A stretch of DNA of 64,000 nt. Source: Candidatus Altiarchaeales archaeon (GTDB lineage Archaea > Altiarchaeota > Altiarchaeia > IMC4 > SCGC-AAA252-I15). Under the pieces are notes generated by a model. The model did not search any database. It had not been told where the DNA came from and saw only the letters and a program-made list of their open reading frames with translations. The position numbers and the translations under genes were made by a program. How positions within the stretch are numbered: position 1 is the first letter of the stretch; each line of letters opens with the position of its first letter. Of the stretch, positions 11,280 through 62,505 are shown in pieces. Location of the stretch: assembly GCA_014727915.1 (NCBI GenBank), contig WJMO01000005.1, positions 416,001-480,000 on the forward strand. Reading direction: 5' to 3'.

Positions 11280-11325
11280 ACGATATAAGTATTCGATGTG
11301 GGATTTAAAACTTGGGAGAGGGATT

Positions 11326-11530
11326 AGAAGCAGTGTGCCATAGGGTCAGGTAGGGTTTTTACGCCCACCTTCCTTGCGGAAGATATCCCTGATGCACCAT
11401 CTTGCGTAAGCTTAATGGGTTTCTTGACACCACATCACTCCTGAGAGCGTTCAACCAGGTTGAACCGATAACCTCCTATGCGGCTATCAATGGGATGTCC
11501 TTTTCAGGGTATTACCTGATTTCCCCGCAC
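11326..11530 (-). ncRNA. Candidate structured ncRNA, copy A (homolog of 59310-59513)
   Basis: Reverse complement aligns end to end with 59310-59513; compensatory changes in stems; upstream TATA motif; no ORF. Confidence 0.8.
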
Positions 11531-11552
11531 AAAAATTTGCGTATTACTACAT

Positions 11553-13979
11553 ATGATGTGCTCATATAAATACTTATCGATTGTCGTGTACATTCTTGTG
11601 CACTCAAACATGGTTTTTTTCAATTATTTAGAAAATCACCCAATAGATACTGGTAAAAAATTGAATTCCAAACATAAACTGTTCCTGGTGATGTCGATCG
11701 TTGCATTCGCTCAACTGGCAGTATCACAGCTTACCGTAGACCTGAACACACCAGTTGACGGCGGGAACGTATCGGACACGTCAGTCACCTTCAACTGCAC
11801 GGCATACTCCCCAGGCCCCGGCCTAGAGAACGTTACCCTGTACTTCTCAACCATTGGCGCGGGAATAACCCAGACGGCATATTTCCAGGACGATAGGGAC
11901 GGGTACACGGGAACCAGGGACGCTACCATAAAGGAGGGAGACCCGGACAACAACTACGAGACGGAGGCTCCATTGTACGTTGACGGCTCCACGCCGTCAG
12001 GTTATGAGAACTGGGCTCTGATGAAGTTCGACATATCCTCGATACCCTCCTACGCCACAGTAACCGGGGTCAACCTGTCAGTGTACATCGTGGACCAGGG
12101 CGACGCCTACGCATTCTACCAGGTCAAGCGGGACTGGGTCGAGTCTGAAGTCACCTATAACGAGTACTCTTCCGGGAACAGCTGGGAGACAGCGGGGGCC
12201 AAGGGTGCGAATGACATTGGCTCGACTGTGTTGGCAAGACTGCCCGGAACCGGCTATTCCGGGAACCAGACCATACAATTCAACCCGGACGGTATCGCCC
12301 TCGTCCAGGACTGGGTGGACGGCACGACCAGCAACTATGGCTTCATAATAGTGAACGTATCAATGACTGGCGGGACCGACATAGCATCGAGCGAGGGAGA
12401 CACGGAGAGGCACCCCGTCCTGGCCGTGACATACCAGTATGGGATCTCATGGCATGCCAACGAGACCAAATCCGCATCCGGCGCCGAGGACAATTTACTC
12501 TTCACCAAGACGCTCACAGACAACGTCGGATACGAGTGGAACTGCCTGGCTGTTGACACGCCAAACGCACAGAACTTCTCCATATCCAACTATACCTTCT
12601 CACTGAACACGAGCTTCATACCCGGCTACCCGAACAGCCCCCAACTGATCTATCCCCCAGACGGGTCTTTCCTATCGACGACGGACGTGCTGTTGAACGT
12701 GACAGTCGACGAACCGGAGGCTGGAGGCTTGGACGTCACATTCTACGGCCGGAACGTCTCGGAAAACTTCACCATGATCGCTTTGCCAGACACCCAAAAC
12801 TACGTCGAATACGAGGCTAACGCGCCGATATTCACAAACCAGACCCAGTGGATAGCCCAGCACTACAGCGACATGAACATAAAGATGGTATTGCACGAAG
12901 GCGATGTCGGAGACCACTGGAACTCGGACACGGAATACGTCCGCGCCAACACGAGCCTTTCAGTCCTCGACAACCACGACATACCCTACAGTGTGGTGCC
13001 CGGCAACCACGACCACGAAGGGGACACGGACAGCTCAACAGCCTACTATAACACCTACTTCCCCGTCTCCCGCTATGAGGGAGAGAGCTGGTGGGGAGGC
13101 AACTACAGCGGTAACGACAACAACTACCAGCTGATGACCATCAACGGCATGGACTTCATATTCCTGAGCCTTGACGTCTGCCCGTCAGACGACGAGATAC
13201 GATGGGCCAACGAGACATTCGAGGCATACCCCGACAGGAGGGGCATACTTACCACACACGCCTACTTGGACTCCAGCGGGGGCAGGACGCCCCACTACTG
13301 CTCGAACACCCAGTACATCTGGGACGACCTCATACGCCACCATGACAACCTCCAGATAGTCCTCTGCGGCCATGTACACTCTGAAAAACGGAGGACAGAC
13401 GACAACCTCGCGGGTAACCCTGTCCATCAGATGCTGGCAGACTACCAGGACCTGTCGAACGGCGGTAACGGCTATCTGAGGATCCTCACGTTCTCTCCAG
13501 CCGACGACACCATCTACGTGAAGACATATTCCCCCTACCTCGAACAATATGACACGGACTCTGAGAGCGAGTTCACCCTGGCCTACACGATGTCGAACGG
13601 CTACGCGGACCTAGGCGGCATCGTCGGCGTGGAAAGCGGGTCACACGCCAACATCACATGGTCGGAGCCCTGGGAGGACACCACCTACCAGTGGTTCGTA
13701 AGCGTGGTCGACGACGAATCCAAGATGACCAACTCTACCGTCTGGTCCTTCAACATAGACAATCTCATATGCACGGGCAGGGACTACACGGGAACAGGCA
13801 ACTGGGACGTGACATCGGACAACAGCTGCCTTGACACGGACATATCCGTGCAAGGGCTGCTGAACGTGAACAACTCGCTACTATCCGTGAATGGGCTCAC
13901 AATATCGCTCAACAATCCGATGCTCCGATTGAACGGTGGTCAGATCTCACTGGCTGACTCCGTCCTCGCATTCCCCTAA
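11553..13979 (+). CDS. Secreted calcineurin-like metallophosphoesterase with DNRLRE(CBM96)-like and Ig-like domains (start probably TTG 11661)
   Basis: GYTGTRDATI...ALMKFDISSIP..PVLAVTY domain; DTQ, HEGD, PGNHD, TTHAY and CGHVH metallophosphoesterase motifs. Confidence 0.85.
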   Translation: MMCSYKYLSIVVYILVHSNMVFFNYLENHPIDTGKKLNSKHKLFLVMSIVAFAQLAVSQLTVDLNTPVDGGNVSDTSVTFNCTAYSPGPGLENVTLYFSTIGAGITQTAYFQDDRDGYTGTRDATIKEGDPDNNYETEAPLYVDGSTPSGYENWALMKFDISSIPSYATVTGVNLSVYIVDQGDAYAFYQVKRDWVESEVTYNEYSSGNSWETAGAKGANDIGSTVLARLPGTGYSGNQTIQFNPDGIALVQDWVDGTTSNYGFIIVNVSMTGGTDIASSEGDTERHPVLAVTYQYGISWHANETKSASGAEDNLLFTKTLTDNVGYEWNCLAVDTPNAQNFSISNYTFSLNTSFIPGYPNSPQLIYPPDGSFLSTTDVLLNVTVDEPEAGGLDVTFYGRNVSENFTMIALPDTQNYVEYEANAPIFTNQTQWIAQHYSDMNIKMVLHEGDVGDHWNSDTEYVRANTSLSVLDNHDIPYSVVPGNHDHEGDTDSSTAYYNTYFPVSRYEGESWWGGNYSGNDNNYQLMTINGMDFIFLSLDVCPSDDEIRWANETFEAYPDRRGILTTHAYLDSSGGRTPHYCSNTQYIWDDLIRHHDNLQIVLCGHVHSEKRRTDDNLAGNPVHQMLADYQDLSNGGNGYLRILTFSPADDTIYVKTYSPYLEQYDTDSESEFTLAYTMSNGYADLGGIVGVESGSHANITWSEPWEDTTYQWFVSVVDDESKMTNSTVWSFNIDNLICTGRDYTGTGNWDVTSDNSCLDTDISVQGLLNVNNSLLSVNGLTISLNNPMLRLNGGQISLADSVLAFP
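11563..11578 (-). promoter_or_regulatory. BRE/TATA-like promoter upstream of ncRNA copy A
   Basis: Minus strand GATAAGTATTTATATG, matching GACAAGCTTTTATATG before copy B. Confidence 0.6.
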
Positions 13980-43095: not shown

Positions 43096-43169
43096 GGGCT
43101 CATAGCTCAGTCTGGTAGAGCGCTCGGCTTTTAACCGAGATGCCGCGGGTTCGAACCCCGTTGAGCCCA
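43096..43169 (+). tRNA. tRNA-Lys (anticodon UUU), no intron, CCA not encoded
   Basis: Cloverleaf: acceptor GGGCTCA/TGAGCCC, D arm GCTC/GAGC, anticodon arm CTCGG-CTTTTAA-CCGAG, T loop TTCGAAC. Confidence 0.95.
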
Positions 43170-59243: not shown

Positions 59244-59270
59244 ACATAAATGTGCAGGAAATTCGAAACC

Positions 59271-59286
59271 GACAAGCTTTTATATG
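59271..59286 (+). promoter_or_regulatory. BRE/TATA promoter upstream of ncRNA copy B
   Basis: GACAAGCTTTTATATG; the TATA ends about 24 nt before the 5' stem at 59310. Confidence 0.65.
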
Positions 59287-59309
59287 GGTGTTCGTATACG
59301 CTATCAAGG

Positions 59310-59513
59310 GTGTAGGGAAATCAAGTAATTCGCCCAATAGGCATCCCATTGATAACCGGATAGGGGGTTGTCGGTTCAACTTCGGTTGAACTCTCTCAGG
59401 AGTGATGCGGTGTCTGCAATCCGTCAAGCTTACGCAAGATGGTGGTTGGGGAATACTTCCGAAAAGGGAAGTGGGCGTAAAAAACCCTGCTTGACCCTAT
59501 AGCACCTGCTTCT
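59310..59513 (+). ncRNA. Candidate structured ncRNA, copy B (homolog of 11326-11530)
   Basis: End-to-end alignment with copy A; cUUCGg hairpin; covarying stems; T-run at about 59523. Confidence 0.8.
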
Positions 59514-59640
59514 TCTGCGACCTTTTTCCATACGGTCCCAGGATACCGTCAATTCCGCCTAATCGCCTTGAAAAATAGACTCTCTCGACCTTCCATTATA
59601 TAAACCCTGACACGAATAACTAGATACACGAGGGTGGAAG

Positions 59641-60084: not shown

Positions 60085-62505
60085 ATGACCGACCGCAGCG
60101 AAGAGCTCATATTATGGTTTGACGAATTAGGGATAGAGGACGTGCCGCTCGTGGGTGGAAAGAACGCGTCGCTTGGCGAGATGCACAGGAACCTGACGGG
60201 CAGGGGAGTGAACGTCCCAAACGGCTTTGCTATAACTGCGGCAGCCTACAGACTGCTTCTCAAAGACGCCGGGATAGAGGAGAGCATAAGGGACATACTC
60301 TCGGACCTTGACACCTCTGACATGGAGAACCTTGCGGACCGAGGCCACCGTGTCAGGGACCTGATAAGGAACAGCGAGTTCCCCCCCGCATTGAAGGATG
60401 CCGTTGTGGGGGCTTACAACAAGCTTTCCGAGCAGTATGGAGACCACTGTGACGTGGCTGTTAGGTCGAGTGCGACCGCCGAGGACCTGCCTGACGCCTC
60501 CTTCGCGGGGCAGCAGGAGACCTACCTGAACATCCGCGGGGAGTCCCAGCTGATAGAAGCGTGCAAGAAATGCTTCGCCAGCCTCTTCACGAACCGTGCA
60601 ATATCATACCGTGTGGACAAGGAATTCGACCACTTCAACGTGTACCTCTCCATCGGAGTCCAGAAGATGGTGCGGTCCGACAAGGCATCGTCGGGTGTCA
60701 TGTTCTCCATAGACACGGAGTCAGGGTTCAGGGAAGTCGTATTCATAACCGGCGCCTACGGCCTGGGAGAGAACGTCGTCCAGGGTGCGGTGACACCGGA
60801 CGAATACTATGTCTTCAAGCCCACGCTGAAGGAGGGCAAGAGGCCGATAATCAGCAAGAAGGTGGGGGCGAAGAAGATAAAGATGGTGTACAGCACCGAC
60901 GGGAACAAGCTCACCAAGAACGTTGACGTGCCGGAGAACGAACGGCGCAAGTTCGTGATATCAGACGATGAGATACTCAAGCTGGCAGAGTGGGCGTGCA
61001 TAATCGAAGACCACTACAGCGAGAAGGCCGGCCATTTCAAGCCCATGGACATGGAATGGGCGAAGGACGGGGAGAGCGGTGACCTGTTCATCGTCCAGGC
61101 CAGGCCCGAGACCGTCCAGTCCCAGAAGGAAGCCAACAAGCTAGAACAGTACATCCTTGACGAGAACGGTGATGTTATCGTGAAAGGGGACTCTGTGGGG
61201 GACAGGATAGGCGCCGGGAAGGTTCACGTGATAAAGGACGTCCATGACATCTCCAAGTTCGAGGAAGGAGAGGTCCTGGTGACGGACATGACAGACCCCG
61301 ACTGGGAGCCCATCATGAAGATCGCCGCCGCCATAGTCACCAACCGCGGCGGCAGGACCTGCCACGCGGCCATAGTATCCCGGGAGCTGGGGATACCCTG
61401 CGTCATAGGCACCGAGAACGGGACCGAAAACCTCGGGTCCGGGGATGACGTGACAGTATCCTGCGCGGAGGGCGAGGAGGGATATGTGTACCGCGGGCAG
61501 CTCAAGTTCCACATTGACTCGGTGAACATCGACGAGATACCCAAGACCAAGACGATGATAATGATGAACGTCGGCATACCCGAGCGCGCATTCGAGCAGT
61601 CGTTCATACCCAATGACGGCGTCGGCCTCGCAAGGGAGGAGTTCATCATAAACAGCTACATAAGCATACACCCGAAGGCTTTGATAAACTATGACAGCCT
61701 GGAGGACTCCGAGGTGAAGGCGAAGATAGACGACCTCACATTCGGCTACGAGGACAAGAAGCAGTTCTTCGTGGACAAGCTGGCCATGGGCATAGCGCAC
61801 ATCGCCGCTGCTTTCTACCCCAAGGATGTCATACTCCGGTTCAGCGACTTCAAGAGCAACGAGTATGCGAACCTCGTCGGGGGCGAGGCGTTCGAGCCCG
61901 AGGAGCACAATCCCATGATAGGGTGGAGGGGCGCCAGCAGATACTATGACGAGAAGTACAGGGACGCGTTCGCCCTCGAGTGCCAGGCGATAAAGAAGGT
62001 CCGGGACGAGATGGGGTTGGCCAACCTGAAGGTAATGGTGCCCTTCTGCCGGACAGTCGACGAGGGCAAGGCAGTCATCGAGGAGATGAGGGATAACGGT
62101 CTCGTGCAGGGTGAGAACGGGCTGCAGGTTTATGTGATGTGCGAGATACCGTCTAATGTCATATTGGCCGACCAGTTCAGCGAGATATTCGACGGGTTCA
62201 GCATCGGCAGCAACGACCTCACCCAGCTGACATTGGGGTTGGACCGTGACAGCGACATAGTCGCCCACCTCTTCGACGAGCGGAACGACGCCGTCAAGCG
62301 CATGGTGTCCCAGGTGATAAAGACGGCCAACGAGAAGGGTCGGAAGATCGGCATATGCGGGCAGGCCCCGTCGGACTATCCGGAGTTCGCGGAGTTCCTG
62401 GTCGAGTGCGGCATAAACAGCATAAGCTTGAACCCTGATACTGTGATCAAGACCAGATTGAAGATCGCGGAGAAGGAGAAGCAGCTGGGCGTAAGTCCAC
62501 AATAG
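60085..62505 (+). CDS. ppsA: Phosphoenolpyruvate synthase
   Basis: VGGKNASLGEM, AVRSSATAED, GGRTCHAAIVSRE, SDFKSNEY, ICGQAPSD. Confidence 0.97.
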   Translation: MTDRSEELILWFDELGIEDVPLVGGKNASLGEMHRNLTGRGVNVPNGFAITAAAYRLLLKDAGIEESIRDILSDLDTSDMENLADRGHRVRDLIRNSEFPPALKDAVVGAYNKLSEQYGDHCDVAVRSSATAEDLPDASFAGQQETYLNIRGESQLIEACKKCFASLFTNRAISYRVDKEFDHFNVYLSIGVQKMVRSDKASSGVMFSIDTESGFREVVFITGAYGLGENVVQGAVTPDEYYVFKPTLKEGKRPIISKKVGAKKIKMVYSTDGNKLTKNVDVPENERRKFVISDDEILKLAEWACIIEDHYSEKAGHFKPMDMEWAKDGESGDLFIVQARPETVQSQKEANKLEQYILDENGDVIVKGDSVGDRIGAGKVHVIKDVHDISKFEEGEVLVTDMTDPDWEPIMKIAAAIVTNRGGRTCHAAIVSRELGIPCVIGTENGTENLGSGDDVTVSCAEGEEGYVYRGQLKFHIDSVNIDEIPKTKTMIMMNVGIPERAFEQSFIPNDGVGLAREEFIINSYISIHPKALINYDSLEDSEVKAKIDDLTFGYEDKKQFFVDKLAMGIAHIAAAFYPKDVILRFSDFKSNEYANLVGGEAFEPEEHNPMIGWRGASRYYDEKYRDAFALECQAIKKVRDEMGLANLKVMVPFCRTVDEGKAVIEEMRDNGLVQGENGLQVYVMCEIPSNVILADQFSEIFDGFSIGSNDLTQLTLGLDRDSDIVAHLFDERNDAVKRMVSQVIKTANEKGRKIGICGQAPSDYPEFAEFLVECGINSISLNPDTVIKTRLKIAEKEKQLGVSPQ

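Follow-up and report, generated by a model that had tools for sequence, protein, structure and literature searches.

A structured RNA family of Altiarchaeota with a bulge-helix-bulge motif at its ends and a predicted circular product

What kind of RNA is encoded by two similar segments that lie on opposite strands of one archaeal contig, and how would it be made? We addressed this question in a stretch of 64,000 nucleotides (nt) from a Candidatus Altiarchaeales archaeon (assembly GCA_014727915.1, contig WJMO01000005.1, positions 416,001 to 480,000; here called the window). A prediction made from the letters of the window (the original prediction) had described a forward-strand segment (copy B) and a reverse-strand segment (copy A) as a possibly undescribed, multi-copy, stand-alone archaeal non-coding RNA (ncRNA) family. 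We find that the segments belong to an uncatalogued structured ncRNA family, limited to part of the Altiarchaeota. Judged from sequence, the RNA is very probably a substrate of the transfer RNA (tRNA) splicing machinery, and it is probably a 181-nt circle because its ends form a motif, the bulge-helix-bulge (BHB), that archaeal tRNA-splicing enzymes cut and re-join.

Covariation and phylogenetic range

Both segments lie where the original prediction had placed them, and every identical block that it quoted was found in both copies. Their identity, given there as about 80%, came to 82% as the mean column identity of a MAFFT alignment of 11290–11600 (−) with 59250–59560 (+), flanks included. In a BLAST search of copy B against its own 1.81-Mb assembly, copy A was the sole other match (82% over 199 nt, E = 5.7e-46). 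From eight aligned sequences, with a structure taken from the helices first proposed and from RNAalifold, we built a covariance model, R1 (197 positions, 60 pairs). This model and its use on the genome and its relatives had been suggested with the original prediction, and the search returned homologues with covariation. The TATA promoter, the tandem arrays, the BHB at what had been called the closing helix and the loop-loop pseudoknot described below are features absent from that prediction.

Thirty distinct members from 25 sources were aligned to R1 (alignment A5); seven contig loci with the same scores as loci already included were left out, as was L066 (equal to L019). Across these 30 sequences the 60 pairs, arranged in 12 helices, are 89.6% paired, compared with 72.3% in shuffles. 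Changes on both sides occur in 52 of the 60 pairs (319 cells), and each of the 12 helices holds at least one pair changed in this way. The covariation score of 0.502 exceeds the shuffled value (0.206 ± 0.008; 0/500 shuffles reach 0.502), a significance that the shuffle control overstates because A5 was fitted to the model structure and the sequences are related. When the 3′ partners were slid by 1–3 columns the score fell to 0.05–0.12. Single-sequence folding was only moderately better than that of shuffles (z = −2.7 and −2.6); it is covariation rather than folding energy that makes the case for a structured RNA. Paired cells contain 171 G-U/U-G as against 54 A-C/C-A combinations and the given strand is therefore the RNA strand, in agreement with the selection at the RNA level and the transcribed strand proposed at the outset.

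The helices quoted in the original prediction match helices of the model with the same arms and are supported in the 30-member alignment, with the exception of CCAT/ATGG: these arms sit, in a slightly shifted register, within the P8 hairpin (CCAUU/GAUGG in copy A). Conservation is strongest in the 5′ GnGcGGGGnnAUc, CAUYCCA, the Rgg of the P5 loop, CUC-N4-GAGUGRUGYGRUG, CCR...GRUGG and the 3′ ACCCUAnnGC. A 3-bp extension of P4 (CAU/AUG) beyond a C-U mismatch is only possible, with one compensatory case (first copy of L020) and two mismatching cases.

A BLAST search within the taxonomic family of the window's genome gave matches in six genomes, and R1 gave 24 matches in 18 of the 49 genomes of the order (the window's own genome counted). 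With that genome excluded, the R1-positive genomes by family are 14/20 in f1, 1/1 in f2 and 2/2 in f5; the same search found no match in f3 (0/1), f4 (0/1), f6 (0/22, E ≤ 0.01) or f7 (0/1). Class and phylum comprise an identical set of 61 genomes. Searched with stricter filters, these 61 Altiarchaeota genomes again gave 18 with a match, one weak f1 match dropping out and one f9 match entering, and with these covarying homologues the proposal of a multi-copy family stands. The absences are soft because most of the searched genomes are only 57–93% complete.

The f9 match (genome G056, L034:1501-1590 (+); 21.4 bits over 90 nt) was not accepted, as it is without the BHB and without the core. This stretch has GUGC/GCAC ends and a P10-like GUGGGUGUAA...CCC hairpin in common with the family, and may represent either a match by chance or a strongly reduced relative.

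Pattern scans extended the range of material. One pattern, run over one genome per species, gave 25 stretches, of which R1 confirmed 7/7 from archaea (three labelled 'Candidatus Altiarchaeota archaeon' and four 'uncultured archaeon') and 0/18 from bacteria. A second pattern, run over metagenome contigs, gave 14 stretches with members in six according to R1. A viral origin was rejected: the lone pattern match in viral contigs is no member, with an R1 score of 14 bits over 67 nt. We found no publication that ties Altiarchaeota to such an RNA, and a 2026 survey of ribosomal RNA (rRNA) circularisation does not mention the phylum.

Two R1 matches per genome were present in 6 of the 18 genomes, and copies within one genome are about as alike as copies compared with sister species. 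In three genomes of one genus the paired copies are 6–23 nt apart with no promoter between them. The metagenome contig L064 carries three BHB-bounded units head to tail behind a single TATA box (L064:1104-1734 (−)). Its middle unit (~1303–1520) keeps the BHB ends, P2 and P8–P10-like parts but differs in its interior, which is longer, and reaches only 7 bits with R1. This unit could represent a paralogue that has diverged, or another class of RNA sharing the release system. A regular-expression scan of the window's genome for further elements with the same ends gave only chance-looking matches beyond the two copies.

Bulge-helix-bulge motif at the base of the RNA

A BHB (hBHBh′) is defined by two 3-nt bulges on either side of a 4-bp helix (excerpts of PMC5829648 and PMC4731332). 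Read from the outside in, the 5′ strand of the RNA carries an outer helix (GUGC plus leader bases), GGGG, a 3-nt bulge and helix P2, and the 3′ strand carries P2, CCCU, a 3-nt bulge and the other strand of the outer helix (GCAC plus trailer bases). The bulges are on opposite strands, each directly 3′ of its own central-helix strand (30/30 by alignment). Four of four central-helix pairs and three plus three bulge bases are present in 30/30 members, the central helix being 100% paired, and 24/30 are strictly canonical, with at least two contiguous pairs in both flanking helices. In minimum-free-energy folds of leader-trailer mini-substrates the BHB is directly visible in most members.

Both helices of the motif vary with pairing retained. 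The central helix, GGGG/CCCU, covaries to AGGG/CCCU in three members, GGGG/CCCC in three and GGAG/CUCC in one. The outer helix consists of leader-trailer pairs of unrelated sequence between genomes and extends up to 10–15 bp. In the 5′ bulge, A occupies the third position in 29/30 members while the first two positions vary; in the 3′ bulge, A occupies the first position in 30/30 and the third in 21/30. We take the cut to fall after the second base of each bulge, an assumption from the canonical 37/38 position of tRNA introns. The bulge bases predicted to stay in the circle are then the conserved ones, and the variable 5′-bulge bases would be lost together with the leader.

The window's own genome provides a control. 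The flanks of its 16S rRNA (C3:343483-344973 (−)) fold into a processing stem with the same strand order: an outer helix, a central AGCU/GGCU, bulges AUA and AAA, and an inner helix. An intron-containing tRNA-Ala lies downstream of the 16S rRNA on C3. The genome encodes a single EndA of 178 aa with N-terminal and catalytic domains (PF01974, 109.5 bits) and a single RtcB (PF01139, 572 bits). Cutting by EndA at a BHB followed by ligation into circles is described for tRNA introns, pre-rRNAs, a permuted signal recognition particle (SRP) RNA and an mRNA leader (excerpts of PMC4731332, PMC7714728 and PMC12558985), and the ends produced by EndA are those joined by RtcB (PMC4731332 and PMC7714728, again in excerpt).

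Predicted circular product and loop-loop pairing

A pathway suggested by these features would run as follows. In the primary transcript, leader and trailer, both short, would pair and, with the first helix of the RNA, build the hBHBh′ motif. EndA would cut within both 3-nt bulges, and RtcB or another ligase would close the excised piece into a covalent circle, with a predicted back-splice junction of ...GACCCUAU joined to AUCAAGUA... in copy B or to AUCAGGUA... in copy A. The predicted circle measures 181 nt in both copies and 154–200 nt over the family. In tandem arrays of two or three units behind one promoter, each unit would be released by its own BHB.

Predicted ligation would leave P2 capped by a 7-nt loop, CCCUAU|A (the bar marks the junction), which is complementary to the P5 hairpin loop, (U)AUAGGG. 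On average, the longest stretch of complementarity between the two loops is 5.03 nt, compared with 1.4–2.1 nt for the five other hairpin loops and 3.43 ± 0.15 nt for shuffled P5 loops (0/500 shuffles reach 5.03). It is at least 5 nt long in 20/30 members and at least 4 nt in 25/30. Compensating variants occur: CCCUAA with UUAGGG in both detected L064 copies, CCCUAAA with UUUGGGG in L025, and CCAU with AUGG in L022. A loop-loop pseudoknot between CCCUAU|A and the P5 loop is thus likely on the sequences, and would lock the mature fold. Because CCCU is held by GGGG in the precursor, excision would free it; removal of the masking GGGG strand would expose the junction loop.

Weighing these features together, we judge it fairly likely that each copy is a stand-alone gene with its own B recognition element (BRE) and TATA box and a pyrimidine- or T-rich end, with a transcript from which the RNA would be excised by EndA at the BHB, ligated to a circle and locked by the loop-loop pairing. 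The sequences themselves show the family, its covarying structure, the promoter, the BHB geometry, the complementary loops and the two enzyme genes; that the RNA is cut, ligated and ends as a circle, and when its loops would pair, is what we infer here. Several points, in addition to the overstated shuffle significance, weigh against this model. Six of the 30 members are not strict BHBs (L021, L024, L026, L065, the first copy of L019 and the second copy of L020); in these, a mismatched or weak pair borders a bulge, and in 3/6 a 12–15 bp helix follows. The single-unit EndA of this genome looks like the alpha4 type, classically held to require strict BHBs (excerpt of PMC5829648). The complementary run is just 2–3 nt in 5/30 members (both copies of L020, L023, L026 and L033). 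In the genomic sequence the base after CCCUAU is also A in 21/30, and a linear RNA could pair too; pairing alone is no proof of a circle because the same 7-mer is present in most linear sequences. Finally, no clue to function emerged, and family f6 gave no R1 match, neither in its 22 genomes at E ≤ 0.01 nor in five high-quality ones even at E ≤ 5.

The non-strict members and the presence of the P5-loop partner CCCUAUA in the unprocessed sequence would equally suit a stable linear ncRNA in which the BHB-like shape is a closing stem, uncut or trimmed at its ends without ligation. Such an RNA would not account for the exact 3-4-3 geometry in 30/30 members alongside an outer helix of freely changing sequence, with covariation of leader and trailer, nor for a strand layout equal to that of the genome's own 16S processing stem. 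Promoter-less tandem units also need endonucleolytic release, and the cut ends would be of the kind that RtcB joins, as cited above. We regard a linear product as unlikely. The stronger form of the circular model, in which Altiarchaeota would carry dedicated genes and arrays whose sole product is a circular ~180-nt ten-helix RNA, with excision acting as a folding switch after which CCCUAU docks on a distant loop, has in our estimate an even chance. Our best guess at a role is an abundant, exonuclease-resistant scaffold of a ribonucleoprotein (RNP), because the genes have their own strong promoter, occur in arrays, share the invariant core GAGUGRUGYGRUG / CAUYCCA and have no fixed neighbour gene.

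One close parallel is the circularly permuted SRP RNA of Thermoproteus, likewise a stand-alone structured ncRNA with a leader-trailer BHB, which is cut by the tRNA-splicing endonuclease before the RNA is circularised (Plagens et al., 2015; PMC4731332, in excerpt). There, the RNA belongs to a known family and, by the same excerpt, circularisation repairs a permuted gene, whereas the RNA described here belongs to no known family, is not visibly permuted, is arranged in multi-copy arrays and occurs alongside a normal SRP RNA. Circular pre-16S and pre-23S intermediates have the same motif and strand layout, and presumably the same enzymes, but in the excerpts of PMC7714728 and PMC12558985 they are transient forms of long rRNAs within an operon; here the RNA, of 181 nt, is preceded by a promoter of its own, and its circular form would be the final product. 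The circular C/D box small RNA (sRNA) from the tRNA-Trp intron is a BHB-excised piece that is itself a functional ncRNA (PMC12558985, in excerpt), as is predicted here, although the Altiarchaeota RNA has no tRNA host, only a short leader and trailer for exons, and no C/D box architecture. In Haloferax volcanii, the BHB intron of the HVO_1309 5′ untranslated region is likewise an EndA substrate that is neither tRNA nor rRNA, and its circle was found; it lies within an mRNA leader and, as far as the excerpt of PMC7714728 goes, forms no conserved multi-helix RNA family.

If the circular model is true, EndA substrates would extend past tRNA, rRNA, one SRP RNA and a few mRNAs to a dedicated circle-producing gene family, which would be a natural case of processing-coupled RNA folding and the first case in archaea of an ncRNA family of unassigned function whose circularity is by design. 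Such a circle might be a ribozyme, or the RNA core of an undescribed RNP. Large, well-supported structured RNAs of unassigned function are rare, and earlier finds of this kind opened up new biochemistry. The present example belongs to a phylum of uncultivated archaea and combines 12 covarying helices and a likely pseudoknot with strong conservation of unpaired bases. Coordinates in the window are collected in Table 1.

Table 1. Positions of the two copies, their signals and their predicted processing features in the window
Feature	Positions	Strand	Basis or remark
Copy B, full covariance-model match, 197 nt	59310–59506	+	model R1, 189.5 bits, E = 3.9e-53
Copy A, full covariance-model match, 197 nt	11334–11530	−	model R1, 201 bits, E = 1.9e-56
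Copy B, purine-rich BRE-like stretch	59264–59276	+	precedes TATA box
Copy B, TATA box TTTTATAT	59278–59285	+	aligns with TATA boxes of homologues; hexamer 30–31 nt upstream of first base of model
Copy A, TATA box TTTATATG	11563–11570	−	39–40 nt upstream of first base of model
Copy B, BHB outer helix, 5′ strand GGGUGU	59308–59313	+	six contiguous pairs with 59502–59507
Copy B, BHB central helix, 5′ strand AGGG	59314–59317	+	pairs with CCCU 59495–59498
Copy B, 5′ 3-nt bulge AAA	59318–59320	+	predicted EndA cut between 59319 and 59320
Copy B, central helix 3′ strand CCCU and 3′ bulge AUA	59495–59498 (CCCU), 59499–59501 (AUA)	+	predicted cut between 59500 and 59501
Copy B, BHB outer helix, 3′ strand GCACCU	59502–59507	+	alignment and folds
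Copy A, BHB 5′ strand	11520–11531	−	outer helix 11527–11531, GGGG 11523–11526, bulge AAA 11520–11522
Copy A, BHB 3′ strand	11334–11345	−	CCCU 11342–11345, bulge AUG 11339–11341, outer helix GCACA 11334–11338
Copy B, predicted excised circular RNA, 181 nt, helices P2–P10	59320–59500	+	circular fold recovers the same helices; covariation
Copy A, predicted circular RNA, 181 nt	11340–11520	−	BHB sites and circular fold
Copy B, P5 hairpin loop AUAGGG	59360–59365	+	6-nt complement of CCCUAU
Copy A, P5 loop AUAGG	11475–11479	−	5-nt complement of CCUAU
Copy B, T5 tract, likely archaeal terminator	59523–59527	+	sequence

Known RNA classes, promoters and neighbouring genes

An Rfam scan, also suggested with the original prediction, gave no match to the RNA: with Rfam 15 at gathering thresholds, the only match in the whole window was a tRNA at 43096–43169. 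In E-value mode the best values at the locus were E = 2.4 and 4.8, for unrelated families, and at six homologous loci, three of them tandem arrays, E = 1.6 and 2.4, none credible. The RNA could in principle be a permuted or very divergent housekeeping RNA (RNase P, SRP, 5S or an rRNA fragment) that the Rfam models would miss owing to a permuted gene order like that of Thermoproteus SRP RNA, a precedent for BHB circularisation (excerpt of PMC4731332). The genome's own RNase P RNA indeed falls just under the Rfam cut-off (C3:339220-339508 (−), 80.5 bits as against the RF00373 gathering score of 84), yet that match is full-length (1–288). The genome also encodes an SRP RNA (C6:120285-120560, 159.6 bits), a 5S rRNA (C5:71695-71810, 72.5 bits) and the 16S rRNA given above, each full-length and elsewhere, so that these identities were rejected, and nothing was found on the tandem arrays, where a permuted match could span two units. 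A housekeeping identity is thus very improbable, and the exclusion of RNase P, SRP, 5S and tRNA in the original prediction holds.

Further classes were considered and rejected. Box C/D RNAs have a C box RUGAUGA and a D box CUGA, a kink-turn (K-turn) near their ends, and guide regions. In this RNA GUGAUGU is internal, and CUGA is Watson-Crick paired in P2, all seven pairs of which covary, and is replaced by CCAA or UCAA in 4/30 members. An H/ACA reading was dropped for want of a conserved ACA box at the 3′ end, and by eye no K-turn-like G-A/A-G arrangement lies beside a helix. An IS200/IS605 omega-RNA or other transposon-end RNA would lie next to a TnpB/IscB or transposase gene and carry a free 3′ guide; this class was set aside, there being no TnpB or transposase among 18 flanking proteins from 10 loci and the 5′ and 3′ ends being paired. 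Two resemblances seen by eye were judged to be chance, that of UGGGCGUAAA to a universal 16S motif and that of GGAGUGAUG to a Shine-Dalgarno string, in which GGAG is paired in P7.

In a default ARAGORN run only 16 tRNA genes were called in the 1.8-Mb, ~91%-complete assembly, and in intron mode 7/11 calls carried introns of 49–190 nt. Many tRNA genes may here be rich in introns, disrupted or absent from the assembly. The longest intron, of 190 nt, lies in the anticodon loop of a tRNA-Arg(CCU) (C11:99288-99551) whose acceptor and T arms look sound; it was rejected as a family member, R1 having just two matches in the genome.

The family members appear to be transcribed from their own promoters. 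A BRE/TATA consensus, AACCGAAAAGnTTTTATAT, is aligned upstream in the eight-sequence alignment. First or only copies have a TATA-like hexamer 30–52 nt upstream in 24/25 cases and at 58 nt in one, the TATA box lying further upstream where the leader-trailer helix is long; the five members without such a hexamer all stand directly behind another copy. Oligo-T serves as an archaeal terminator. Trailers are pyrimidine-rich, with a run of at least four T within 40 nt of the 3′ end in 12/30 members.

BHB introns are known in tRNA, rRNA and mRNA, and the seven intron-bearing tRNA genes (of which the 190-nt intron was inspected) add to the appeal of another explanation, namely that the RNA is an intron-like selfish or relic element, with the 181-nt piece as waste and the spliced leader-trailer or host transcript as the part that matters. 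However, the excised part holds 10 inner helices (P2–P10), nearly all conserved bases and covariation in every helix, whereas the leader and trailer are short and their sequence is not conserved. The promoter lies directly before the element, the locus is syntenic across genera and neither an endonuclease nor a transposase gene is nearby. An intron-like element is accordingly a very doubtful reading, and we keep to that of an RNA gene in its own right.

The flanking genes had been described as unrelated and free of transposases, and this description was confirmed. In the window the neighbours are a 476-aa open reading frame without a Pfam match, a metallophosphoesterase, a JAB protein, an OB-fold protein resembling single-stranded DNA-binding protein (SSB) and a phosphoenolpyruvate (PEP) synthase. 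Neighbours at other loci include radical SAM, glycosyltransferase, CTP synthase, mannosyltransferase, nucleotidyl transferase, DEAD-box helicase and asparagine synthase genes. A Pfam scan of 18 flanking proteins from 10 loci found no transposase or TnpB, and with such diverse housekeeping neighbours a transposon-end reading is not supported.

The SSB-like gene (PF21473; 59641–60057 (+)) begins 134 nt downstream of copy B and is followed by the PEP synthase gene (60085–62505 (+)). This pair adjoins the RNA in 7/26 loci from several genera, an adjacency that invites the reading of the RNA as a cis-regulatory, riboswitch-like leader of the downstream gene. Within these loci the orientation is mixed (same direction in 4/7, divergent in 3/7), and the other loci have the unrelated neighbours listed above. 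Across the 61 genomes, the RNA and close SSB orthologues do not go together; in addition, the RNA is followed by T-rich tracts and the downstream gene has a separate TATA-like box. With neighbour genes and orientation varying in this way a leader function was rejected as extremely improbable; the adjacency is read as synteny, and the RNA as a stand-alone gene. The SSB-like protein was also considered as a partner of the RNA; it is adjacent in 7/26 loci, yet its orthologues do not follow the RNA and we make no claim for it. A second, distant OB-fold paralogue is present on C3 of the same genome.

Divergent from copy A, an 808-aa reading frame (11553–13979 (+)) encodes a calcineurin-like phosphoesterase with a weak match to a disaggregatase repeat (24.3 bits, compared with a Pfam cut-off of 33.9).

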